64,000 bases of DNA from Gemmatimonadales bacterium (GTDB taxonomy: Bacteria > Gemmatimonadota > Gemmatimonadetes > Gemmatimonadales > GWC2-71-9), in contig DATLVU010000052.1 of the NCBI GenBank assembly GCA_035577025.1, forward strand, positions 7,303-71,302, read 5' to 3'. This document shows positions 13,588 to 52,590 of this stretch, piece after piece. Under the pieces are notes generated by a model. It did no database searches and had not been told where the DNA came from. It saw only the letters and a list, made by a program, of their open reading frames with translations. Each line of letters opens with the position of its first letter. Position 1 is the first letter of the stretch. The translations under genes were made by a program, and so were the position numbers.

Positions 13588-16500
13588 TCAGGAAGTTCGC
13601 ACGAGGTGGACGCGGTCGGGACCGACGAGCTCGCGCAACGCGGCCAGCAGGTCGTCCGCCGCGTCCACGCGGAGCGAGCGGCTACGCAGCCGGGCGACCT
13701 CGCCCGGGGTGAGCGGACGGGCGCCGTCTTCGTCACTCCACTCGAGCAGGACCGGAGCCGGCCCCGGATGCGCGGCGCACAGGGCGGCGACGGCGCGCGT
13801 CGCGTCCACCGGTGCATCCGGGGACCAGCGCAAGGCGACGCCGATGGCCCCGCTCGCCTTCAGCTCGTCGAGCGGTTGGGCGGCTTCGACGATGAACGGG
13901 GCCTGCTCCTCCCCCCGGTCGCGCGCGCTGTGACTCCCCGACAGGAGCAGCGCGCGGTCGGTGCGGATCACCTCGTTCAACTTGGCCCAGGCCTCCGGGA
14001 ACACGAGCGCCTCCGCGGTGCCGTGAAAGTCCTCGAGCGTCAGCCGCGCGTACTCCGCGCCGGTCTTTTTCGAAATCTGACGCTTGACCATCGTCACCAC
14101 CGCTCCTACCCGCACCTTCTGTTCGCTCCAGTGACCCAGGGTGGCGGTGGTGCGCGTCCCGAAAAGCTCCACCTCGAGGCGGTATCGCGCGAGAGGGTGC
14201 CCGGAAATGAAGAAGCCGAGCACGGCCTTCTCGCGCGCCAGCCGATCGTGCTCGCTCCAGGGGGGGACGTCGGGAAGCGGTGAGCGGTGAGCGGTGAGCG
14301 GGGCCGCCTCACCGAACAGCCCGACCTGACCGGATTCGCGGTCCCCCTGGCGCGTTTGGGCTTCGGAAAAGGCGTGGTCCAGCGCCGCGACGAGCTGGGC
14401 GCGTTGGCCGCCCCCATTGCCGGTGAGCGAGTCGCATGCGCCGGCGTCGATCAGCGACTCGAGCACGCGCTTGTTGCAGAGGCGCAGGTCGATGCGGTCG
14501 CACAAATCCACGAGCGAGGCATAGGGGCCACCGCTCGCGCGGCCCGTGAGGATGGACTCGATCGCCCCCGCTCCGACGTTCTTGATGGCCCCGAGCCCGA
14601 ACCGGAGACGCCGATCGGCGACCACCGTGAACTTGAAACCCGATTCGTTCACGTCGGGGGGCAGCACCTCGAGCCCGAGCTCCCGGGCCTCGTTGATGTA
14701 GCGCACCACGGTATCGGTATCGCCGATCTCCGATGACAAGAGGGCCGACATGAACTCAGCCGGGTAGTGCGCCTTGAGCCACGCCGTCTGGTAGGAGAGA
14801 ACCGAGTAGGCGACCGCGTGCGACTTGTTGAACCCGTACCGGCCGAACGTCTCGATCTGCGCGGCGATATCCTCGATGACGCGTCGGGGGTGGCCGAGCC
14901 CCACGGCGCGCTCCACGAAGCGGCCGAGCTCGCGCTGAATCAGCTCCTTGTCCTTCTTGCCCACGGCTTTGCGCAGCACGTCGGCTTCGGCGAGCGTGAA
15001 GCCCCCGAGCACGTTCGCGATCCGCATCACCTGCTCCTGATAGGTGATGACGCCGTAGGTGGGCCTGAGAATCTCTTCGAGCGCGGGGTGCGGGTAGCGC
15101 ACCGGCTCGCGGCCGAGCTTGCGGTTGATGAACACCAGATGCATGCCGGTGTCGAGCGGGCCGGGACGGAGCAGCGCGTTCGTCGCCACCAGATCGTCGA
15201 AGCGATCGCACTTCATGCTGCGGAGGCAATCGGTGGCGAGCGGCGACTCGAACTGGAAGACACCGGCCGTACGACCGGAGCCGAGCAGCTCGTAGACCGC
15301 CGGGTCCGCGAGGTCGAGTCGGTTCATGTCGACGGTCACGCCGTGACGTTCGCGAACCATCGCGCAGGCATCGTGGATCACGGTCAGCGTGCGGAGCCCG
15401 AGGACGTCGATCTTGAGCATCCCGACCTTCTCGAGCGCGACCATGTCATACTGGGTGATGATCGCCTCCGCCTCCTGCGGCGCGAGGCACACGGGCACGT
15501 AATCGGTGAGCGGGCCCGGGGCGATCACCACGCCCGCCGCGTGTACGGAGGCGTGGCGCGCCAGGCCTTCGATCCGGGTGCCCAGCTCGAGGATCTTCCG
15601 AACGCGGTCGTCCTGGCGCGCGAGCTGCCGCAGCTCGGGGGACCGCTCGGAAGCTTCCGCCAGCGTGACGGCGATGCCGGGCCCGGCCGGAATCATCTTG
15701 GTGAAGCGATCCACCTCGCCCGGCTCCACGCGGAGCGTGCGGGCGACGTCGCGGAAGGCCGCGCGCGCCTTCAGCGTCCCGAAGGTGATGATCTGCCCGA
15801 CCGAGTCGCGCCCGTAACGCTCCCGGATGTACTGGATGACCTCCCCGCGGCGCTCGAAGCAGAAGTCGAGGTCGATGTCCGGCATCGAGATGCGCTCGGG
15901 ATTCAGGAACCGCTCGAACAGCAGGTCGAACGCGAGCGGGTCGATATCGGTGATGCCGAGGGCGTAGGCCACGAGCGAGCCCGCGGCCGAGCCCCGGCCG
16001 GGGCCCACCGGGATGCCTCGGTCCTTCGCTGCCTTCACGATGTCGTAGACGATCAGGAAGTAGCCGGCGTACCCGGTATGCGCGATGACCTGCAGCTCGT
16101 AGTCGAGCCGCGTCTGGACCTCCGGGGACAGCGTCTCTCCATAGCGCTGCCGCGCCCCGGCGCGCGCGAGGTGCACGAGCAGATCGTGGTCGGTCGCGAA
16201 CTCGGCCGGCCGCGGGTACTGGGGGAGGAAGTATCGCTTCTCGAAATCGAACTCGCACAGCCCCGCCACGCGTTGGGTTTCCTCCACCACCTCGGGGTGG
16301 TCGGGGAACAACGCGCGCATCTCTTGCTCGGCCTTGACGTAGCTCTCTTGACCGAAGAACCGGAAGCGGTTCGGATCGTCCAGGTCCTTGCCGGTGCCGA
16401 TCGCGAGGAGGACGTCGTGTGCCTCGGCGTCCTCTTTCTTCAGGTAATGCGCGTCATTGGTGGCCACGACCGGCAGGCCGAGCTCCCGGGCGAGCTGAAA

Positions 16501-17073
16501 CATGCCGGCGGTGACGGTGGTCTCATCGGCCAGGCCGTGGTTCTGGACTTCGAGCCAGAATCCGTCGGGACCGAACACCCGGGCGAAGTACTGGGCGCTC
16601 GCCTTCGCCGCCTCGTAGTTCCCCTGCCGCAGGTACAGGGCGATCTCGCCCGAAAGGCAGGCCGCGAGTCCGATCACTCCGTCGGCGTACTGCTCCAGGA
16701 CCTCACGGTCGATGCGGGGGCGACGGTAGAAGCCCTCCAGAAACCCGATGGAGGACAATTTGACGAGATGGTGATACCCGGTGCGGTTCTTGGCGAGGAG
16801 GACGAGGTGTGAGTAGGGGCCCGGCGCCTCGGCCGGTCGTTCGCGCCGGTGGCGATCGCCGAACGCGAGATACGCTTCGAAGCCCAGGATCGGACGCACC
16901 TTCCGGGCCCGCGCCTCGGCATAGAACTGCCACGCGCCGTGCAGATTGCCGTGGTCGGTGATCGCGAGCGAATCCATCCCGAGCGTCTGGACCCGCTCGA
17001 GCAAGTCGGGGATCCGGTTCGCGCCGTCGAGGAGGGAGTACTCGCTGTGGGTATGGAGGTGAACGAACGCCAT
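13588..17073 (-). CDS. dnaE: DNA polymerase III subunit alpha
   Basis: PHP-domain start MAFVHLHTHSEYSLLDG at ATG 17073; the ORF-track extension to 17316 is not coding-like. Polymerase core and C-terminal OB region are present. Confidence 0.95.
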   Translation of the reverse strand: MAFVHLHTHSEYSLLDGANRIPDLLERVQTLGMDSLAITDHGNLHGAWQFYAEARARKVRPILGFEAYLAFGDRHRRERPAEAPGPYSHLVLLAKNRTGYHHLVKLSSIGFLEGFYRRPRIDREVLEQYADGVIGLAACLSGEIALYLRQGNYEAAKASAQYFARVFGPDGFWLEVQNHGLADETTVTAGMFQLARELGLPVVATNDAHYLKKEDAEAHDVLLAIGTGKDLDDPNRFRFFGQESYVKAEQEMRALFPDHPEVVEETQRVAGLCEFDFEKRYFLPQYPRPAEFATDHDLLVHLARAGARQRYGETLSPEVQTRLDYELQVIAHTGYAGYFLIVYDIVKAAKDRGIPVGPGRGSAAGSLVAYALGITDIDPLAFDLLFERFLNPERISMPDIDLDFCFERRGEVIQYIRERYGRDSVGQIITFGTLKARAAFRDVARTLRVEPGEVDRFTKMIPAGPGIAVTLAEASERSPELRQLARQDDRVRKILELGTRIEGLARHASVHAAGVVIAPGPLTDYVPVCLAPQEAEAIITQYDMVALEKVGMLKIDVLGLRTLTVIHDACAMVRERHGVTVDMNRLDLADPAVYELLGSGRTAGVFQFESPLATDCLRSMKCDRFDDLVATNALLRPGPLDTGMHLVFINRKLGREPVRYPHPALEEILRPTYGVITYQEQVMRIANVLGGFTLAEADVLRKAVGKKDKELIQRELGRFVERAVGLGHPRRVIEDIAAQIETFGRYGFNKSHAVAYSVLSYQTAWLKAHYPAEFMSALLSSEIGDTDTVVRYINEARELGLEVLPPDVNESGFKFTVVADRRLRFGLGAIKNVGAGAIESILTGRASGGPYASLVDLCDRIDLRLCNKRVLESLIDAGACDSLTGNGGGQRAQLVAALDHAFSEAQTRQGDRESGQVGLFGEAAPLTAHRSPLPDVPPWSEHDRLAREKAVLGFFISGHPLARYRLEVELFGTRTTATLGHWSEQKVRVGAVVTMVKRQISKKTGAEYARLTLEDFHGTAEALVFPEAWAKLNEVIRTDRALLLSGSHSARDRGEEQAPFIVEAAQPLDELKASGAIGVALRWSPDAPVDATRAVAALCAAHPGPAPVLLEWSDEDGARPLTPGEVARLRSRSLRVDAADDLLAALRELVGPDRVHLVRTS
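14277..14304. repeat. heptamer tandem array (GCGGTGA)x3 + GCGGGGC inside dnaE
   Basis: Read directly from the sequence. It encodes LTAHRSPL in the variable linker upstream of EKAVLGFFISGHPL. Confidence 0.95.
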
Positions 17074-17146
17074 ACGGCTACGAGGAATGATACCGGCGCC
17101 TCGATGCATTGTCAAAAGCGCGCGGCGCCGGATATCTTGTGGCCCC

Positions 17147-18523
17147 ATGCGCCGCGTGGCGAGTCTGTTCGCGCTGATTGTGGTGATGGCGCTGCTGCAT
17201 CGGGCGACCGCGAGCAGCCCACTCGACGCGCGGGCCACGCTCGCGCTCGCGTTTTTGTTGCTCGCGGCATACCTGGGCGGGGACCTCGCGCGGCAGGCGC
17301 GACTCCCCCGTCTCACGGGCTACGTGCTGCTCGGATTCGCCGTCGGACCCGCCTGGCTCGGCGTGGTGCGACGCGACGAAGTGGAAGCCCTCGGCTTCCT
17401 CCAGGACGCCGCGCTCACCCTCATTGCCCTCACCGTGGGACTGACACTGCGCCTCGCCGAGCTGCGCCGGAATCGGCTCGCCCTGGCGCGCCTCGGTGCC
17501 GGCGCCGTCGCATTTCCCTTCGTCGTCGTATCGCTCATCGCCTTCACGATCACCCCCTGGCTCCCCTTCACGGCACATCAACCGTTCGGCGATCGCGCCG
17601 TGGTTGCGCTCGTGCTCGGCACGCTCGCCGCCGCTTCATCGCCGGTCGTGGCCATGGCCATGCTCGAGGAGTGCGACGCCCGGGGTCCCTTCGCGCGCGG
17701 TCTGCTCGACGTGTCGGTCGCCCAGGATCTAGTGGTGGTGATTCTGTTTGCGCTGGTCATCGCCGTGGGCAAGGCGATGGCGAGCTCGGGCACGGTCACG
17801 GTCTCCATCGCGGGGTTCGCGTTGGGTGGAGTCCTGGCGTCAGTTGCGGTGGGACTCCTGCTCGGGTACGCATCGCACCGTGCCCTGCGACTGGCGCGCC
17901 GCGATACGACGATCCTCGTGGTCGCCCTGGCGTTCCTCACTCCTCAGATCGCCCGCCTGGCGCATCTCGAGAGCCTGATCATCGCGCTCGGCGCGGGCTT
18001 CTATCTCGAGAACTTTTGTCCCGCCGCCGACATCGATCGCTTGCGTAGCGACCTGAAACGCGGGGCGCTCGTCGTGTACGTCCTCTTCTTCGCGCTCAGC
18101 GGGGCCGGGTTGCGGGTGGGTGTGCTCGCGGAGTGGTGGCCCTGGGCGTTGCTCCTGATCGGGTTACGGGTCGTGAGCGTGCGCTACGGTATCCGCTGGG
18201 CGGGACGCGACCCGAGTGTGACGCCCGCCCTCGCCGGGGAGGGCTGGCTCGGCCTCTTTTCCCAGGTGGGAATGGCGTCGGTGCTCGCGCAGCTCGCCCG
18301 TCGTGCGTTCCCCGAGTGGGGGGTCTCCCTCGAGGCCCTGCTCGTGGCGATGATTGGAGTCCACACGGTGGCTGGGCCGATCTGTTTCCGTCTAGCGCTC
18401 GAGCGCACCGGTGAAATCACCGATAAGACAGGGGGAGGGGGGTCACGCCATGCCGAAGCGTCTCTGGGCGATCGGGGTGAGGGTGGGGATGGGGGTGTCG
18501 TCGCTGCTGGCGGCGGCGTGTAG
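17147..18523 (+). CDS. cation:proton antiporter (Na+/H+ exchanger family)
   Basis: Polytopic membrane protein; LPRLTGYVLLGFAVGPAWLG is typical of CPA-type exchangers. ATG 17147 was chosen over the upstream extension. Confidence 0.8.
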   Translation: MRRVASLFALIVVMALLHRATASSPLDARATLALAFLLLAAYLGGDLARQARLPRLTGYVLLGFAVGPAWLGVVRRDEVEALGFLQDAALTLIALTVGLTLRLAELRRNRLALARLGAGAVAFPFVVVSLIAFTITPWLPFTAHQPFGDRAVVALVLGTLAAASSPVVAMAMLEECDARGPFARGLLDVSVAQDLVVVILFALVIAVGKAMASSGTVTVSIAGFALGGVLASVAVGLLLGYASHRALRLARRDTTILVVALAFLTPQIARLAHLESLIIALGAGFYLENFCPAADIDRLRSDLKRGALVVYVLFFALSGAGLRVGVLAEWWPWALLLIGLRVVSVRYGIRWAGRDPSVTPALAGEGWLGLFSQVGMASVLAQLARRAFPEWGVSLEALLVAMIGVHTVAGPICFRLALERTGEITDKTGGGGSRHAEASLGDRGEGGDGGVVAAGGGV

Positions 18524-20114: not shown

Positions 20115-20977
20115 TGAAGGGGCGCGTCCCCGGCGGGCTCCTGCTGACCGTGCTGTGCGCCGTTCTGCTCGCTCCCGGGCTCGTCGCACAAGGTGAGGGC
20201 AGTCTGCCGGGCCTGCCGGGCTCGGCGCGCGGAGCGGGGATGGGTGGCGCGGGGGCGGCCCTCGTGGGCGACGCGGGCGCCATCTTTGCGAACCCGGCCG
20301 GCCTCGCCACGATCCACCATCTGGCCGTCGAGGGCGCGTACGAGGCCTATCCCGGGGGGACGACGCTGTCGACCGGCGCGCTCGCGCTGCGCGTGAGCCG
20401 CTTCACGTGGGGGGCCGGCGCGGCGGCCCTCGGACCGAACTACAACCGCGCCGACGTGCTGGGCGTGTCGTCGTTGGTGTTCCGGACCGGGGTCGTGGCG
20501 CTGGGCACGTCCATCAAGTACGGACGCGAGACGATCGGAGGAGCACGGCTCGACGCCTGGGCGGGTGACGCCGGGCTGGCCATCGCGGTGTTCGACCTGA
20601 TGGCGTTGGGCGTCAGCGTGCAGAACATCGGTGGCGATCTCGGCCTCGGGCTCCACTTTCCGCGTCGCACGCGAGCCGGGTTCACGTTGAATTACGTCGA
20701 TCCCCAAGGCACCTACCGTCTCCTCACGACACTGGAGGGGCAGTGGCCGTCGGACGGGAGCGCCTTTGTGGTCCTGGGTGTCGAGAGCGGGATGGTCACC
20801 CACGGGCTCGGTTTGCTTGCGCGCGTGGGGTATGTGGGTCACTCGGCGGCGACCACGGCGTCGCCGTTCACGGCGGGGGCGGGCGTCGAGGTGGGTCGGC
20901 TGCATCTCGATTATGCCTATCGGCAGGATGATGCGCTCGGCGCGCGGCATCGCGTAGGGTTGCGATGGACACCGTAG
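20114..20977 (+). CDS. PorV/PorQ-like outer-membrane beta-barrel protein
   Basis: The start overlaps the upstream stop (TAATG). Signal peptide, then [30 protein letters not shown], a motif typical of PorV/UPF0164-type barrels. The rest has an alternating beta-strand pattern. Confidence 0.65.
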
Positions 20978-22071
20978 TCGAGCGCCGTCCACCGAACTGG
21001 GGGCGTGTCGGTCGCCGACTCCTGGCGTGGGTGGTGATCGGCGTTCCCACGCTGCTGGTCGTGACCCTGGTGACGAGCGCCGAGGTCCGGTACTTGGCGC
21101 GGGCGGGCGTCGAGGAAGCTCGCATTCTCCTGCGGCGCCGCGCGATGGACAAGCTCGCCGGGGACCCCAAGACCTCGCCGGCCCTGCGGCAGCGGCTCGA
21201 GCTGGTCCTCGCCGCCCGGACGTACGCGGCTGACTCACTCGGCTTGCTCGTCGGTGAGACGTATACGACCTATGCGGACGTGGGACGGGATACGCTGCTC
21301 TTGGTCCTGTCGGCGTCGCGTCGTGATCGGCTACGCGAGTACACGTGGCGCTACCCTATCGTCGGCACGGTCCCGTACAAGGGGTTCTTCAACTTCGCTC
21401 AGGCCCGGAGCGCGGCCGCGGAGCTCGAGCGGAACGGTTTCGACACGTACCTGCGCCCCGCGGGCGCCTTCTCGACGCTCGGATACTTCGCGGATCCCCT
21501 GCTCTCGACCGTGATGGAGCGGGACACGATGGAGCTCGTCGCGACGGTGATTCACGAGCTGGCCCACAACACCCTGTATCTGAAGAGTCAGACCGCGTTC
21601 GACGAGAGCTTCGCGAGCTTCGTCGGCTATCGGGGCGCGCAGGCCTTCTTTCGCTCACGGGGCGACTCGGTGGACGCGAATCGCGCCGTGGCCCGCTGGC
21701 GGGACGAGCGGCGGCTCGATCAACTGTACGCCGAGCTGGCGCGACGCCTCGATTCAGTCTATGCGGCGGGCCCGATGGGCACGGCGCTCGAGCGCTCGCG
21801 CGCCACGATCTTCGGGTGGGCCCGGGCGCAGCTCACGGGGGCGGTAGGACAATCACTGGAAACGTACGACTGGCGCTGGTACGCCAAGGCTCCGCTCAAC
21901 AACGCGGTCGTAATTGCGCAGCGGTTGTACCGCATGAACCTCAACCAATTTGAAGAGGTCTACCTGCAGTCCAAGGCGGACCTGCGGGAGGCGATCCGCG
22001 CCATTCAGGTGAGGGTGTTCACGGACCCTGGGCAGGATCCGTATCAGGCGTTGTATTCGCGAGGCGGATGA
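20965..22071 (+). CDS. predicted zinc aminopeptidase (DUF2265/COG4324-like)
   Basis: N-terminal TM segment. HELAHNTLY plus [10 protein letters not shown] motif. Overlaps the upstream gene by 13 nt. Confidence 0.75.
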
Positions 22072-22084
22072 AGGGTGGCGGGTT

Positions 22085-22130
22085 GGCGGTCGAGAGGCAA
22101 CGGCGGCGGTCAGGCGGGCTGGCGGTCACG
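22085..22130. repeat. left inverted-repeat arm flanking the four-helix-bundle gene (GGCGGTC units)
   Basis: GGCGGTCGAGAGGCAACGGCGGCGGTCA (22085-22112) is the reverse complement of 22538-22565 in 26 of 28 positions. It overlaps the gene's stop codon. Confidence 0.9.
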
Positions 22131-22472
22131 CACCGCTTTATAAAGTCGCCAGGTCAGCCGACTGGCATCGGCCCGGAGGCGATCCAATTCGCGCCACTGC
22201 CCCTCCTGCAGGAACCCGAGCTTCCTGCACACCCGCAAGGTGTATGAGAGCTCTGACAGCGATCCCATGGCGATGTCCAGGTAGCGCCGGAACTCGCGTG
22301 GACCTCGTTTCGCTGAGCCTTCCACGATGTTCGCGGCCGCACTGAACGCCGCCCGACGCGCCTGCGATGTGAGACCATACAGTTCTTGTCGAGGAAACCC
22401 TGCGGTCTCGCGATAGACCGCGACGACGAGTTGGTCGCAGGCCTGCCATGCGCGGAACCGCTCGTAGGGCAT
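22110..22472 (-). CDS. four-helix-bundle protein (23S rRNA intervening-sequence protein / Avd-like family)
   Basis: MPYERFRAWQ..., LTSQARRAAFSAAANIVEGSAKR..EF.RYL.IA.GSL.EL motif series is characteristic of this family. ATG 22472. Confidence 0.9.
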   Translation of the reverse strand: MPYERFRAWQACDQLVVAVYRETAGFPRQELYGLTSQARRAAFSAAANIVEGSAKRGPREFRRYLDIAMGSLSELSYTLRVCRKLGFLQEGQWRELDRLRADASRLTWRLYKAVRDRQPA

Positions 22473-22537
22473 CACCCCACTAAGTGTCGCTCGTTTTGAT
22501 CGCGCGCCGGGATCCAATACGCGCGCGCCGTATCAAC

Positions 22538-22614
22538 TGACCGCCGCCGTTGATTCTCGACCGCCTGATCGCCGCATTGTCGTTTGACCGGCCGACCGCC
22601 TGACCGCCGCCGTT
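22538..22614. repeat. right inverted-repeat arm (two TGACCGCCGCCGTT copies)
   Basis: TGACCGCCGCCGTTGATTCTCGACCGCC at 22538-22565 plus a second partial copy, CGACCGCCTGACCGCCGCCGTT, at about 22594-22614. The arm abuts the gdh stop codon. Confidence 0.9.
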
Positions 22615-22615
22615 T

Positions 22616-23881
22616 TCAGTTTCCCCTCAGCCGCTCCGCCTCCGCTACTCTCTGCAGCGCAATCGCATACGCGGCCGTCCGGAACGTCACGCCCTTCTGC
22701 TTCGCGAGGTCGCGCACGCCCACGTAGGCCTTGGTGATCGTCGCTTGCAGCTCGCGGTTCACCTGCTCATGGGTCCACCGGTACTGCTGGAGATTCTGGG
22801 CCCACTCGTAGTAACTCACCGTGACGCCACCGGCGTTGGCGAGGAAGTCGGGAATAACAGGGATGCCCCGCTCCTCGAGAATCAAGTCCGCTGTAGGCGT
22901 CGTCGGCTCGTTCGCGCCCTCGACGACCACCTTGCAGTTGACCGTTCGCGCGTTCGACTCCCGGGTGATCACGCCGCCCAGCGCTGCCGGCACGAGCCAG
23001 TCGCACGGCACCATCCACAACTGATCGTTCGTGATGGCGGTGCCGCCCTTCCACTCGGAAACCGGTCGGCCGCCGGCGGTGTGGGCGAGCAGGCCGGGAA
23101 CGTCGAGCCCACCGTCGTTCATGATGCCGCCGTTGACATCCGAGATGGCGACGACCTTCGCTCCCCCCTCCGTGTGTAGCAGCCGGGCGAGGTTGCCACC
23201 GACATTGCCAAACCCCTGAATGACGACACGGCTGCCCTTCAGCGGAACGCCGAAGTCGCGCGCGTACTCCATCATCACGTACATCACGCCTCGCCCCGTG
23301 GCCTCCTCGCGGCCGAGCGAGCCGCCGAGTGATATGGGCTTGCCGGTGACAGCGGCCGGGGTATAGCCGTGCCGGCTCGAGAACTCGTCCAGGATCCAGG
23401 CCATCACCTGGGCGTTCGTCGCGACGTCGGGCGCGGGGATGTCCCGATACGGCCCGAGAACGATGGAGATCCGCTGCGTGAAGCGGCGCGTGAGCCGTTC
23501 GAGTTCGAGCTTGGAGAGCTTCTTGGGATCGACGGCGACGCCGCCCTTGGCACCGCCGAACGGGATGTCCATCAGAGCGGTCTTCCAGGTCATAATGGTG
23601 GCCAGGCCCAGGACTTCATCGTGGTCGGCGTCGAGATGGTAGCGGATCCCGCCCTTGCAGGGCCCCCGCGCCCCGTTGTGCTGGATGCGGTACCCGGTGA
23701 ACACCTCGATGCGACCGTCGTCCATGCGCACCGGCACCTCCACCTGCACCTCGCGGAAGGGCTTCATCAGAATGCGCCGCATATACTCTTCGAGGTTGAT
23801 CAAATTGGCGGCGCGCTCGAACTGGCTGTCGACGATAGACTTCCCCGTCATGGTGCGCGGGGATCGTGCGGTAGCGGTCAC
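22616..23881 (-). CDS. gdhA: Glu/Leu/Phe/Val dehydrogenase (glutamate dehydrogenase)
   Basis: CKGGIRYH and PFGGAKGGVAVDP motifs with a Rossmann GFGNVG. The start could be the internal ATG at 23851. Confidence 0.92.
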   Translation of the reverse strand: MTATARSPRTMTGKSIVDSQFERAANLINLEEYMRRILMKPFREVQVEVPVRMDDGRIEVFTGYRIQHNGARGPCKGGIRYHLDADHDEVLGLATIMTWKTALMDIPFGGAKGGVAVDPKKLSKLELERLTRRFTQRISIVLGPYRDIPAPDVATNAQVMAWILDEFSSRHGYTPAAVTGKPISLGGSLGREEATGRGVMYVMMEYARDFGVPLKGSRVVIQGFGNVGGNLARLLHTEGGAKVVAISDVNGGIMNDGGLDVPGLLAHTAGGRPVSEWKGGTAITNDQLWMVPCDWLVPAALGGVITRESNARTVNCKVVVEGANEPTTPTADLILEERGIPVIPDFLANAGGVTVSYYEWAQNLQQYRWTHEQVNRELQATITKAYVGVRDLAKQKGVTFRTAAYAIALQRVAEAERLRGN

Positions 23882-25055: not shown

Positions 25056-25081
25056 GGCGGGGACGAATATAGTCCTAAGCG

Positions 25082-25127
25082 TCGAGACGGCTAGACGGCT
25101 AGCCGTCCAGCCATCTAGCCGTCTAGA
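25082..25127. repeat. 46-nt near-palindrome of octamer units in a divergent promoter region
   Basis: (GACGGCTA)x2 is followed by GCCGTCCA, GCCATCTA and GCCGTCTA, which are inverted copies. It lies between divergently transcribed genes whose starts are at 25055 and 25139. Confidence 0.9.
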
Positions 25128-29702: not shown

Positions 29703-30974
29703 CTAAAGCAGCATTGCGAGTGGATTCTCGAGCATCTGTTTCAGCGTTTTCAAGAACGCCGCGCCCGTGGCGCCGTCGATGACGCGGTGGTCGCAGCTCA
29801 TGGTAATGCGCATCCGGCGCCCCGGCGCAAGCTGACCGCCCACGACCACCGGCTTCTGCGTGACGGACCCGATCGCGAGGATACCAGCCTCGGGCGGATT
29901 GATCACCGCCGTGAACTGGTCGATCTCGAACATCCCCAGGTTCGAGACGGAGAACGTCGATCCGGTGTACTCGGTCGGCTGGAGCCGACGGCTACGAGCC
30001 TTCTCGGCCAGCTCCCGCGCCTCCCGCCCGATCTCGACGAGCGATTTGCGATCGGCGTTCCGGATCACCGGAGTAATCAGCCCGTCCTCCACCGCCACCG
30101 CGATCCCGATGTGAACCTCGTTCCAGTAGCGAATGTGGTCGTCCTGGAACCAGGCGTTGCAGGCCCGATGCTTTACGAGCGCCAGTGCGGTCGCCTTGAT
30201 GATCACATCGTTGTAGGAAATCTTCCCCTGGTCCCCGCGCTGCTGGTTGAGCGCATCGCGTGCTTCGGCCGCCCGCTCCATGTCCACTTCGGTCGTAAGG
30301 AAGAAATGGGGGATGGGGCCGAGGGACGTGACGAGCCGCTTGGCGATGGTCTTGCGGATCTGGGTGAGGGGGACGTCGTCGTAGGCCGCTCCTCCTCCTC
30401 CCACCACCGGGGAGCGGGGAGCGGGGAGCGGTACCTCGCGCTGCACGGCTGGCTGCGTAGCTACGGCCCGACCTTCCAGGTCCCGCTTGGTGACCCGTCC
30501 GCCAGGACCCGTTCCGGTCACTAGCTTCAGGTCAACGCCGGCATCTTTTGCCATCCGTCTCGCCAGCGGGGAGGCCTTCACCCGCGTAGCGTCGGCTGGC
30601 GTCGCCACGGAGGGTACCGCTCCCCGCTCCCCGCTCCCGACGTTCAGGACCGCTCCCCGCTCCCCACTCCCTGTCGCCGCAGCGACCGCCGGCCGGGGGG
30701 AGGGCACGGAAGCCGGTGCGGCGGCGGACGTCTCTCCGGGGCCGAGAATGACCGCCACCACCTTACCCACCGGCACCGTCTGACCTTCGGCGACACTCAC
30801 CTGCCGCAGCACGCCGTCCGCGCGCGCGATCAGGTCCATCACGGCCTTGTCGGTCTCGACCTCCGCCAACGTGTCGCCGGTCTTCACGGCGTCGCCGTCG
30901 CCCTTGTGCCACTTCACCACGCGTCCCTCCTCCATCGTCGGGGAGAGCGCTTCCATGTAAACGTTCGTGGCCAC
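29703..30974 (-). CDS. pdhC: dihydrolipoamide acetyltransferase (E2) of the pyruvate dehydrogenase complex
   Basis: Lipoyl domain (LAEVETDKAVMDL), PSBD (ASPLARRMAKDAGVDLKLVTGTGPGGRVTKRDLE) and catalytic domain (SCDHRVIDGA). Confidence 0.93.
   Translation of the reverse strand: MATNVYMEALSPTMEEGRVVKWHKGDGDAVKTGDTLAEVETDKAVMDLIARADGVLRQVSVAEGQTVPVGKVVAVILGPGETSAAAPASVPSPRPAVAAATGSGERGAVLNVGSGERGAVPSVATPADATRVKASPLARRMAKDAGVDLKLVTGTGPGGRVTKRDLEGRAVATQPAVQREVPLPAPRSPVVGGGGAAYDDVPLTQIRKTIAKRLVTSLGPIPHFFLTTEVDMERAAEARDALNQQRGDQGKISYNDVIIKATALALVKHRACNAWFQDDHIRYWNEVHIGIAVAVEDGLITPVIRNADRKSLVEIGREARELAEKARSRRLQPTEYTGSTFSVSNLGMFEIDQFTAVINPPEAGILAIGSVTQKPVVVGGQLAPGRRMRITMSCDHRVIDGATGAAFLKTLKQMLENPLAMLL
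30409..30435. repeat. (GGGGAGC)x3-GGTACC, left arm of a 26-bp perfect inverted repeat inside E2
   Basis: 30410-30435 is the exact reverse complement of 30613-30638. Confidence 0.95.
30613..30672. repeat. GGTACC-(GCTCCCC)n right arm plus a 33-nt tandem duplication inside E2
   Basis: Arrays lie at 30619-30639 and 30652-30672. They encode GSGERGAVLNV followed by GSGERGAVPSV. Confidence 0.95.
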
Positions 30975-41936: not shown

Positions 41937-42630
41937 CCGAGGTCGGTTGCGAGGGCCGGACCTTCGGCTCGTGGCGCTCGCGCTGGCGCGCGGGGACGCC
42001 GCGCGCCGCGCGCGTTACGAGCGCGTGATGCTCGAGCAGGGACCCGATGAGCTCCTCGACGAGCCGGGCCTGCTCGAGGCCCTGCTCGCGGTGCGCACGC
42101 TCGCCGTTCCATCGCCCGCGCTGTTCGCCTACGTCGCGGTCCGTCACACGCTCCGGGCCGCCGGCGTCGACGACCGGCTGCTCGCCGACTACCTCGCGGC
42201 GCTCCTGCTGGAGTTCGGCGATCACGACCGGCGTTCCCGCGTGCGGAGTGGGGCCGACGACGAGACCTATCACTATCTGGTCGACATGGTGGAGGACCTC
42301 GCGGGGCTCGACGACGCTGGAGAACGCGGCTTCCTGCTGCGTGTGCACCTCGGGAACTACAGCCTGTGGCTTGCCGGTCTGTTTCCTGATTACATCGCCG
42401 CCCGGCGCTCGCGGAAAGGTGGGCCCGACCTCCCGTATTACGACGAGCTGGGCCGCCAGGGCTACCGCCTCGCCGCGGCGCATCGCCTCGCCGAACGCTT
42501 CGGTGTGGCTCCGATCTATCGCGCCGCCGCCGACCGGTTCCCGACGCTCCGCGTGGCGTTCAATCGCCTGAGCGACCGGGTGTTCTTCCCGAACGTCAGT
42601 ACTCCCGAGAAGATACTTCGAAATCTGTGA
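41920..42630 (+). CDS. hypothetical protein
   Basis: 236-aa ORF from ATG 41920, or from the internal ATG 42025. No recognisable motif. Convergent with the SCP2 gene. Confidence 0.5.
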   Translation: MILANIRGRLRGPDLRLVALALARGDAARRARYERVMLEQGPDELLDEPGLLEALLAVRTLAVPSPALFAYVAVRHTLRAAGVDDRLLADYLAALLLEFGDHDRRSRVRSGADDETYHYLVDMVEDLAGLDDAGERGFLLRVHLGNYSLWLAGLFPDYIAARRSRKGGPDLPYYDELGRQGYRLAAAHRLAERFGVAPIYRAAADRFPTLRVAFNRLSDRVFFPNVSTPEKILRNL

Positions 42631-42688
42631 GCCGTGAGCGGTGAGCGGGACTGTAACGACCTCTCACCGCTTACCGCTCCCCGCTCAC
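42627..42688. repeat. inverted heptamer arrays forming a long hairpin between convergent genes (likely bidirectional terminator)
   Basis: GTGAGCC GTGAGCG GTGAGCG (42627-42647), a 16-nt spacer, then TCACCGC TTACCGC TCCCCGC TCAC (42664-42688). It overlaps both stop codons (42628-42630 and 42685-42687). Confidence 0.85.
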
Positions 42689-52032: not shown

Positions 52033-52056
52033 CCCCGGGCTTGCGCCCGGGGTCAG
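52033..52056. repeat. REP hairpin CCCCGGGC-TTGC-GCCCGGGG + TCAG
   Basis: 8-bp G/C stem with a tetraloop. It overlaps the RAYT stop codon (52053-52055). Confidence 0.9.
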
Positions 52057-52454
52057 TGAACCCGTCCAGTCCGAGGGATGCGATCGGGGTGGTGCTCGAA
52101 TTGGCGCGCCACGTAGACGATCGCACGGGCGAGATCCTTCTTGTGCAGGGTTGCCGCGTAGAAACCTCGCGACCAGCGCACCGCGCCAGGAATTCGGCGG
52201 TTGGCGCGTACCGCTCCGACACTCTTGGCCAATCGTACGAAGTCGCTCTGGCGCGTATTCGGCCGAAAGCTCACGACCAGATGGACATGGTCCGCTAGGA
52301 TCGCCTGCCGTAGGACCCGCACACCGGAATTGTGGCAGGCGCTCCTGATTGCGCTCTCGAGGTCGTTAGCTGCCGTTCGGTCGATGCATCCTACACGCTT
52401 CCAGGTGTGCCAGGTGACGTGGGCGTAAAGCTGGTATGCGCGGTGATCGGACAT
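52053..52454 (-). CDS. REP-associated tyrosine transposase (IS200/Y1_Tnp family)
   Basis: YQLYAHVTWHTW..., the HUH motif ADHVHLVVSF, and C-terminal IVYVARQFEHH carrying the candidate catalytic Tyr. ATG 52454. Confidence 0.85.
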   Translation of the reverse strand: MSDHRAYQLYAHVTWHTWKRVGCIDRTAANDLESAIRSACHNSGVRVLRQAILADHVHLVVSFRPNTRQSDFVRLAKSVGAVRANRRIPGAVRWSRGFYAATLHKKDLARAIVYVARQFEHHPDRIPRTGRVH

Positions 52455-52470
52455 TGGACTGGTGCCTTTA

Positions 52471-52590
52471 CTGACCCCGGGCGCAAGCCCGGGGATCACC
52501 AAAGGCTCGATGAGGGGTCTCCCTGACCCCGGGCGCAAGCCCGGGGATCACCAAAGGTTCGACGAGAGGTCTCCCTGACCCCGGGCGCAA
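52471..52590. repeat. tandem REP array, 52-bp unit x about 2.3
   Basis: CTGACCCCGGGCGCAAGCCCGGGG occurs at 52471 and 52523, with a truncated copy at 52575. The inter-REP segments are nearly identical (ATCACCAAAGG(C/T)TCGA(T/C)GAG(G/A)GGTCTCC). Confidence 0.95.

Follow-up and report, generated by a model that had tools for sequence, protein, structure and literature searches.

A 64,000-nt stretch of a Gemmatimonadales genome (contig DATLVU010000052.1, positions 7,303 to 71,302; hereafter the window) carries a single small open reading frame (ORF) in the spacer between two convergent housekeeping genes. The ORF encodes a four-helix-bundle (4HB) protein of the S23p/Avd family and is enclosed by inverted arrays of short tandem repeats. 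We propose that this spacer probably holds a gene cassette of the type seen as intervening sequences (IVSs) in 23S rRNA genes, located here outside the 23S rRNA and composed of a leader and the 4HB gene between paired tandem-repeat arms. At the sequence level the element has every feature of an IVS apart from the defining location in rRNA. The initial annotation of this DNA had suggested a small structured or mobile cassette, and this is supported by its presence and absence in sister species, by its occurrence in both orientations, by a block of ~100% identity shared with a related lineage, and by an 80%-identical copy at another locus.

The cassette and its repeat arms

The initial annotation had placed a 120-aa 4HB gene between convergent genes, and this was borne out, with profile searches confirming the family. 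The spacer between the two stop codons (22072-22615, 544 nt) contains only this ORF, whose product matched PF05635 with E 1.6e-26 and 93 bits (cut-off 33.8) and TIGR02436 with 91.4 bits (cut-off 24). The protein also matched a solved Xanthomonas structure, PDB 2GSC (E 2.1e-21), an entry of five chains, and, more weakly, PHROG 3206, the Avd protein of diversity-generating retroelements (DGRs; E 6e-7). The gene is slightly atypical in composition, with a GC content at third codon positions (GC3) of 0.73 compared with 0.78-0.91 in the other called genes, and in the window's lineage it shares its orientation with the dehydrogenase gene. The median dN/dS over 171 pairs of intact 4HB genes was 0.09; intact copies are under strong purifying selection at the protein level, though the cassette is dispensable to the host.

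Read in the direction of the gene, the cassette consists of a G-rich array of two partial ~28-nt units, a 64-nt leader, the ORF, and a complementary C-rich array. Inverted repeats had been predicted to flank the gene, and two pairs are present: 22085-22113 with 22537-22565 (29 nt, 93% complementary) and 22099-22128 with 22585-22614 (30 nt, 90% complementary). The inverted-repeat score of the cassette flanks was 24, while 500 shuffled versions gave 8.8 +/- 1.1 with a maximum of 15. On the left, the first repeat unit begins 3 nt after the aminopeptidase stop codon, and the arm overlaps the last codons of the 4HB gene, so that one repeat unit takes in the TGA stop codon (22110-22112). The right arm contains an inner copy (22537-22565) and an outer copy that ends 1 nt before the stop codon of the dehydrogenase gene. 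This outer copy had been anticipated at a length of ~21 nt; the copy exists, but it spans 30 nt (22585-22614). Tandem Repeats Finder reported a period of 8 in three copies at 22585-22608. Exact copies of the 19-mer AACGGCGGCGGTCAGGCGG lie at 22099-22117 (+) and 22596-22614 (-), and with up to three mismatches allowed the 19-mer has four matches in the window compared with 0.18 expected. The 8-mer GGCGGTCA is not enriched across the window (8 found, 5.1 expected), and four of the eight occurrences lie within the cassette. A strict heptamer unit, as first supposed, did not hold, as the unit in relatives is either ~20 nt (GGCGGTC plus a ~12-nt spacer) or an 8-mer.

The arms vary in length among close strains. 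An identical 4HB protein is encoded on 21 soil-metagenome contigs, with the same synteny and orientation in the 10 of the 21 that were listed. Among contigs encoding the identical protein, the 3' arm contains one (the window), three or four copies of the 20-nt unit TGACCGCCGCYGTTGCCTCT. Such differences between near-identical strains indicate that the arms are tandem arrays that expand and contract. RNA folding of the cassette gave -285.7 kcal/mol (z -4.3) for the minus strand and -261.3 kcal/mol (z -2.2) for the plus strand; for both strands the arms are predicted to close the cassette in the minimum free energy and the centroid structures.

The leader contains a bipartite motif, TTGATAC (reverse complement of 22530-22536) followed after ~12 nt by TTGGATC (reverse complement of 22511-22517). 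Across 90 non-redundant leaders the consensus was TTGGTAC-N12-TTGGTTAC/GATAC, positioned 45-70 nt upstream of the ATG and kept across sites with unrelated arms. The motif may be a promoter or regulatory element belonging to the 4HB gene itself. A promoter scan of 21500-23200 found no match to the sigma-70 consensus, and on inspection the leader motif fits neither sigma-70 nor sigma-54. The same region contained no intrinsic terminator, scored as a local GC-rich hairpin followed by a T-run. PADLOC reported no defense-system match, and no Rfam family was found in the window at gathering thresholds; the cassette is not inside an rRNA gene, both of its flanks being protein-coding. The initial annotation had noted that the window lacks a reverse transcriptase. 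We agree, as the DGR reverse transcriptase motif (I/L)GxxxSQ...YxDD is absent from all six frames of the 64 kb and the neighboring genes belong to unrelated Pfam families (Aminopep, ELFV_dehydrog, TPR, Peptidase_M20). The features of the locus are collected in Table 1.

Table 1. The cassette, its flanking genes and the exchanged block, in window coordinates
Feature	Coordinates	Strand	Evidence or comment
Putative aminopeptidase gene, PF10023 (left flank)	20965..22071	+	Pfam E 1.3e-81; orthologues in 80 Gemmatimonadales species
Left arm, G-rich on + (GGTGGCGGGTTGGCGGTCGAGAGGCAACGGCGGCGGTCAGGCGGGCTGGCGGTCACGC); C-rich 3' arm of the 4HB gene	22074..22131	+	Inverted pairs I1-I3; direct pairs D6, D9
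4HB gene, 120 aa, S23p/Avd family	22110..22472	-	PF05635, TIGR02436
Leader between 5' arm and ATG, 64 nt	22473..22536	-	Comparison of 90 non-redundant leaders
Right arm, C-rich on +; G-rich 5' arm of the 4HB gene	22537..22614	+	Inverted pairs I1, I2; direct pairs D3, D5
Glutamate-type (Glu/Leu/Phe/Val, ELFV) dehydrogenase gene (right flank)	22616..23881	-	Pfam PF00208 and PF02812
Block of near-zero divergence from locus L003	22061..22669	.	1 mismatch, 2-unit copy-number difference, 2-nt indel

The same spacer in related species

Species-representative genomes were scanned for the aminopeptidase, which yielded 80 loci, all from metagenome-assembled genomes of Gemmatimonadales (loci are denoted by L and a number). 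In 64 of the 80 species the dehydrogenase gene follows convergently, and this set formed the base of the synteny census. The spacer is empty in 38 of the 64, where it measures 0-42 nt and has no repeats; it holds a 4HB gene in 15, a gene-less hairpin of inverted short tandem units in seven, and an unrelated larger insert in four. Ten of the 15 4HB genes are co-oriented with the aminopeptidase ('+') and five have the opposite orientation ('-'), as in the window; three of the 15 are pseudogenes, with a frameshift or an internal deletion. Units such as ATTGCGG, GCGGAAC and GCGACGGA make up the gene-less hairpins, of which only L100 uses GGCGGTC. As one check on the cassette, relatives had been expected to show whether the same repeats persist without the gene, and for the most part they do not.

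The closest relative, L026, has flanking genes that are 94.7% and 93.2% identical to those of the window at the nucleotide level, while its spacer is unrelated, 21 nt long and free of repeats. In a host tree built from the two flanking proteins, sister taxa switch between occupied and empty sites, and '+' and '-' loci are scattered among one another. These comparisons, together with the exchange described below, show a cassette that is dispensable, being often lost or decayed, present in two orientations, and exchanged as a block that ends at the arms.

Several stages of decay were observed. L027 and L037 carry frameshifts, L098 has a deletion from the middle of the gene to the 3' array, and L045 retains a short remnant. 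L100 contains a 66-nt hairpin of GGCGGTC units and has kept TTGTATC, a motif similar to the beginning of the leader. From their sequences, both L098 and L100 appear to have arisen from a cassette by deletion. The unrelated inserts in L029, L040, L085 and L095 are 460-2148 nt long and have neither a 4HB gene nor repeat arms; the site between the aminopeptidase and dehydrogenase genes therefore takes other DNA too.

Exchange, replacement and inversion of the inner module

Comparison of the window with L003 revealed a sharply bounded region of near identity. The two lineages are ~5% apart and their flanks differ by 4-8%: the block itself has a single mismatch, whereas the adjoining 570 nt on its left contain 22 and the adjoining 525 nt on its right 41. 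The ends of the block fall within 11 and 54 nt of the cassette. A block of ~100% identity inside diverged flanks thus marks a recently exchanged unit.

Other pairs of loci differ within the arms. L094 and L244 have flanks that are 97% identical and a left array that is collinear over ~115 nt at ~90% identity, while the inner module of leader plus gene is 67% identical and inverted. L089 and L090 encode 93%-identical 4HB proteins in opposite orientations. Divergent 4HB subtypes (55-63% identity) are present at the same site in L034 and L103, with arm units GGCGGACC and GGCGGGAA, respectively. Of 72 occupied loci between the aminopeptidase and dehydrogenase genes, 43 are in the '+' and 29 in the '-' orientation. 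At a broad scale, 4HB protein identity follows that of the host (Spearman 0.72), but at a fine scale the two are uncoupled. Vertical descent accompanied only by loss was ruled out by the ~100% block in 95% flanks, the 67% inverted allele in 97% flanks, and the divergent subtypes of L034 and L103.

The arms are reverse complements of each other, so that recombination within them can turn the inner module around or put another in its place, whatever its orientation. The arms would then serve as recombination homology, with the inner module being flipped or swapped for another allele. We infer such arm recombination as the simplest reading of the L003, L094/L244, L089/L090 and L034/L103 data. Taken together, hundreds of related loci show a unit of gene plus arms that is gained and lost, swapped and flipped, as a single block.

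The same design at other sites and in other organisms

A metagenome scan with an alignment of related 4HB proteins returned 80 loci. With L110 added, these represent at least 19 distinct genomic sites as judged by flank similarity, and the neighboring genes differ by site. L110 encodes an 80%-identical 4HB protein, located after a urate-oxidase operon and flanked by degenerate GGTCGG / CCGACC inverted repeats. At five of the eight sites with several members, both orientations relative to the flanks were found. Nearly all of the metagenome loci have a G-rich tandem array upstream of the gene and its complement downstream, with a unit that varies by site (GGCGGTAGGAG, GGAATGAT, GACGGTAAGG, GACGGTAGAG, GGGCGGAT, GCGGTTGA, GACGGAAG and others).

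Arms were scored against a cut-off set at the 99th percentile of 368 random-window controls, and a second control set comprised 530 other genes in the same sequences, aligned on the gene. The cut-off was exceeded by 57 of 67 related 4HB loci (85%) and by 5 of the 530 control genes (0.9%). The initial annotation had called for a search for arms around other copies of the family, and this search upheld the association: arms flank 37 of 45 related 4HB genes at other sites and 46 of 62 distant relatives. The median match score between arms was 23 within the same locus and 9 between different loci, covariation at the level of the whole array. The arm unit is shown by these alignments to vary by site, yet the two arms of one locus always match. 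The control gene at 13588-17316 scored 19 through a single exact 19-mer in coding sequence and was set aside as not an array.

Distant relatives were collected by searching the contigs of a viral collection with a broader alignment, giving 62 non-redundant loci on contigs of 38-70% GC. Inverted tandem arrays of many different units were present in 46 of the 62 (74%), and no reverse transcriptase motif was found within 1.5 kb of any of the 62. A search of the viral contigs with the pattern GCGGCGGTCN{9,20}GCGGCGGTC was too unspecific, giving 120 matches to apparently unrelated repeats, none of which adjoined a 4HB gene. Among cyanobacteria, 4HB genes with inverted heptamers are carried on plasmids of Calothrix, Nostoc punctiforme and Stanieria. 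An exception to the inverted design is L313, on plasmid pPg_01 of Pseudanabaena galeata, where the 4HB gene lies inside a CRISPR-cas operon between cas6 and cas4, with 14 copies of AAAAGCT before it and ~10 copies of AAAAGCC after it, in direct orientation. An unannotated hit on Azospirillum lipoferum AZO_p2 (L316) proved to be an IVS within a 23S rRNA gene (Rfam 2478 bits), and its arms consist of TCAGAGGACGGATGACAGAGGACGGAGGAC and its complement, which are likewise heptamer-like.

The arms have a consistent polarity: of the 101 loci with inverted arms, 99 have more G than C in the sense-strand 5' arm, a bias that symmetry does not demand and that is equally true of the gene-less hairpins seen. 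At L232, L241, L245, L253, L260 and L308, the last unit of the 5' array together with a short loop, one complementary unit and a T-run forms a canonical intrinsic terminator, immediately ahead of the leader. As far as sequence comparison extends, the arms are shown to be a near-constant companion of the 4HB family over many sites and GC classes, and of a classical 23S IVS.

A model for the cassette and the points against it

In the mechanism that we propose, a transcript crossing the cassette from either flanking gene would fold the arms into a long duplex. RNase III would cut this duplex, as experiments have shown for 23S IVSs, and cutting could insulate the insert from host transcripts and make the insertion harmless. 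Since the Avd pentamer binds nucleic acid, the 4HB protein may, by analogy, have the arms or the folded RNA as its target.

Several points weigh against an IVS-type cassette, or against parts of this mechanism. The RNase III step is taken over from 23S IVSs by analogy alone. Of the arm mismatches, 117 are G.U-compatible on the sense strand and 98 on the antisense strand (p 0.22); with no sense-strand excess, the pairing that matters could be that of the DNA. The 5' arm may also be missing from the gene's own mRNA at many other sites, where the 5' array is followed by an intrinsic terminator before the leader begins. At such sites the upstream host gene probably ends at this terminator and the 4HB gene is probably transcribed from a promoter of its own. 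The arms are incomplete or differently arranged in some organisms: Nostoc 7120 has a 3' array only, the arrays of Pseudanabaena are mostly direct, and a minority of loci combine a 5' array with just one 3' unit. As for how the cassette might enter, comparison of the window with the empty site of L026 revealed neither a target-site duplication nor a recombinase, and no hairpin already in place. Finally, the comparative data consist of metagenome assemblies throughout, and the loci are related by descent, a phylogenetic non-independence that makes the p-values too optimistic.

Comparison with known systems

IVSs of 23S rRNA that bear an S23p ORF are known in Leptospira and Coxiella burnetii; such elements sit in helix 25 or 45 of the rRNA. 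The cassette resembles them in its PF05635 protein, in its size class (~430-540 nt), and in an ORF enclosed by stem-forming terminal inverted repeats. It differs in lying between protein-coding genes, with relatives at 19 or more other non-rRNA sites, in arms that are longer arrays, in an inner module present in both orientations, and in an ORF that is under strong purifying selection instead of decaying. The Coxiella IVS is 428-444 nt long with a 28-bp terminal stem that is cut by RNase III, and ahead of its S23p ORF it carries GACAGAT heptamers in two or three tandem copies, variable among strains, with ORF deletions in some strains (PMC4990558). The cassette shares with it the tandem units of variable copy number beside the ORF, the sporadic distribution, and decay of the ORF in some strains; RNase III cleavage, established for the Coxiella IVS, is a prediction for the window cassette. 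A 2024 survey of rRNA insertions described the S23p family as functionally uncharacterized (PMC11270868), and the family has been recognized as Avd-like (PMC10053308).

Short tandem arrays have also been described in the absence of any attached gene. Xanthomonas genomes contain convergent pairs of G-rich GGGAATC heptamer arrays (PMC4692102), and cyanobacteria contain short tandemly repeated repetitive (STRR) heptamers (PMC4679880); in both cases no gene is attached and no function is known. The 4HB arrays are similar to these in having short (7-8 nt) G-rich tandem units, often as convergent intergenic pairs, and a strain-variable length (PMC4692102, PMC4679880), and cyanobacterial 4HB genes are flanked by exactly STRR-type heptamers. 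Unlike these genome-wide repeats, the 4HB arrays go with a single gene family and have a unit that differs by site.

Two further systems share the layout of a small gene with structured ends. Repetitive extragenic palindromic (REP) sequences, their paired form (REPINs) and the REP-associated transposases (RAYTs) likewise combine a single small gene between inverted short repeats with gene-less intergenic copies (PMC3116915). RAYTs differ in being HUH/Y1 nucleases with a fixed palindromic REP per genome, whereas the 4HB protein has no nuclease motifs and its arms are tandem arrays with many unit sequences. Integron cassettes, which consist of an ORF and an attC imperfect inverted repeat, are comparable as small, promoter-poor, exchangeable single-gene units with structured recombination-site ends. 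The 4HB cassette differs from them in having no integrase, attI platform or cassette array, and in carrying tandem-repeat arms on both sides of the gene.

Alternative explanations

The arrays may instead be pre-existing repeat hairpins that are common in the intergenic regions of these genomes and do not belong to the cassette, with the 4HB module preferentially landing in, or being copied into, their loops. We regard this as possible, if rather unlikely. It would account for the gene-less inverted arrays of other units in the same spacer of seven species, for the gene-less arrays elsewhere in the window (42627-42688 and 25075-25126), and for the ~70 convergent GGGAATC array pairs per genome described without a gene in Xanthomonas (PMC4692102). 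The comparison of L094 with L244, where the array stays with the flank and the inner module differs, also agrees with it. A prior hairpin is difficult to reconcile, however, with the 38 of 64 spacers that are empty and entirely without a hairpin, among them that of the window's sister lineage. The block of identity between the window and L003 takes in both arms, the divergent subtypes at one site bring their own units (GGCGGACC in L034, GGCGGGAA in L103), and L098 and L100 resemble deletion derivatives of a cassette.

We also considered a non-autonomous element similar to a miniature inverted-repeat transposable element (MITE), with terminal inverted repeats and a transposase acting in trans, for example a Y1/HUH enzyme acting on hairpin DNA. 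The inverted termini, the patchy distribution over several sites and the cassette-sized block of identity fit this explanation, as does a Y1 transposase gene with inverted REP-like palindromes in the same window (52033-52590). We nevertheless consider it improbable. Relative to the empty sister site there is no target-site duplication, and in place of the fixed terminal sequence of a transposon or MITE the termini are arrays of variable length whose unit differs by site, so that a single transposase would have no common recognition sequence. Selection moreover maintains the encoded protein (dN/dS 0.09), something not usually seen in a gene that is simply carried along.

Very little probability attaches to the view that the arms are ordinary bidirectional terminators of the convergent housekeeping genes and that the small gene is there by coincidence. 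The location between convergent genes and the GC-rich, pairing-capable arms would suit terminators. Neither arm, however, forms a local hairpin with a T-run, and the scan of 21500-23200 found no such site; canonical terminators are found inside cassettes at other sites. Most relatives manage with spacers of 0-42 nt and no structure, and the same design recurs at 19 sites or more, including between co-directional genes and inside 23S rRNA. Arms are present on 85% of 4HB genes compared with 0.9% of controls. The comparative data already contradict this explanation.

It seems equally far-fetched that a recombinase drives the segment as an invertible switch, giving phase variation of the gene or its neighbors within a population. 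Inverted repeats do bound a segment that is seen in both orientations, but no recombinase gene is adjacent at any site examined, and the 10 contigs listed of the 21 with the identical protein all have one orientation. The closest pair in opposite orientation has inner genes only 67% identical, which points to allele replacement and not to a recent flip. That the 4HB protein is Avd in a remnant or distant component of a DGR is hardly credible: it is a homologous small basic four-helix-bundle protein (PMC10053308), and its relatedness to Avd is detectable (PHROG 3206, E 6e-7), but the adjacent genes are housekeeping genes, the neighbors differ at each of the 19 or more sites, no DGR-type reverse transcriptase motif occurs in the 64 kb or within 1.5 kb of the 62 distant relatives, and the repeats in 21950-22750, the region to which this search was confined, are no longer than 18 nt (direct) or 30 nt (inverted), with no template/variable pair.

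Implications for the 4HB family and heptamer repeats

To our knowledge, S23p/4HB proteins are annotated by the thousands with no known function outside DGRs, and we know of no explanation for 23S rRNA IVS elements after more than 30 years, or for the heptamer tandem repeats that fill some bacterial genomes. The present data suggest that S23p proteins, 23S IVSs and heptamer repeats are one puzzle and not three. Apart from the one description in Coxiella, no paper in the accessible literature, which included few subscription journals, tied the S23p/4HB family to repeat arrays on its flanks; the comparative data point to a family-wide design of a 4HB gene with inverted arrays that is undescribed there. 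The rRNA is just one among many insertion sites of 4HB cassettes. For annotation, flanking inverted arrays mark the class and set it apart from true DGR Avd genes.

A broader reading, which we offer tentatively and with considerable doubt, is that the PF05635 4HB genes and the heptamer-type arrays of bacteria form one system that has so far gone unrecognized. The 4HB protein would be the factor acting in trans for a class of stem-loop cassettes, working directly on its G-rich/C-rich arrays by binding, templated extension, recombination or copying into new hairpins, and 23S IVSs, cyanobacterial STRR repeats, the Xanthomonas GGGAATC pairs and the Gemmatimonadales cassettes would be products of the same machinery. 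If this were true, gene-less inverted arrays would be its footprints, as REPINs are for RAYT transposases.

Other repeats in the window

The heptamer arrays elsewhere in the window had been placed in the sequence family of the cassette arms and read as possible related footprints, the weak side claim of the initial annotation. Kinship was seen in the common design, which is tandem, inverted and G-rich first, but not in the sequence, which differs. The flanks of the 18 other occupied sites did not map to the window, its heptamer arrays included, apart from two weak paralogue matches. The gene-less hairpins at 42627-42688 and 25075-25126 consist of inverted short tandem units, (GTGAGCG)3 / (CGCTCAC)3 between convergent genes and (GACGGCTA)n / (TAGCCGTC)n between divergent genes. 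Both are G-rich first, as are the 4HB arms.

The region 52033-52590 contains an IS200-like transposase ORF (Y1_Tnp, 52053-52454 on the minus strand, Pfam E 2.9e-17). The gene is flanked by an inverted palindromic unit, CCCCGGGC-TTGC/GCAA-GCCCGGGG, with 52033-52060 and 52467-52494 being 96% complementary over 28 nt, and additional tandem copies have a 52-nt period in 2.3 copies. By its sequence this region is a classical RAYT/REPIN layout. Coding heptamer arrays are present in the gene at 29703-30974 (-), where (GGGGAGC)3 and, twice, the inverted (GCTCCCC)3 occupy 30404-30431, 30615-30638 and 30648-30671. The gene product looks like a putative 2-oxoacid dehydrogenase E2 acyltransferase, in which these arrays would fall in the linkers on either side of the subunit-binding domain.

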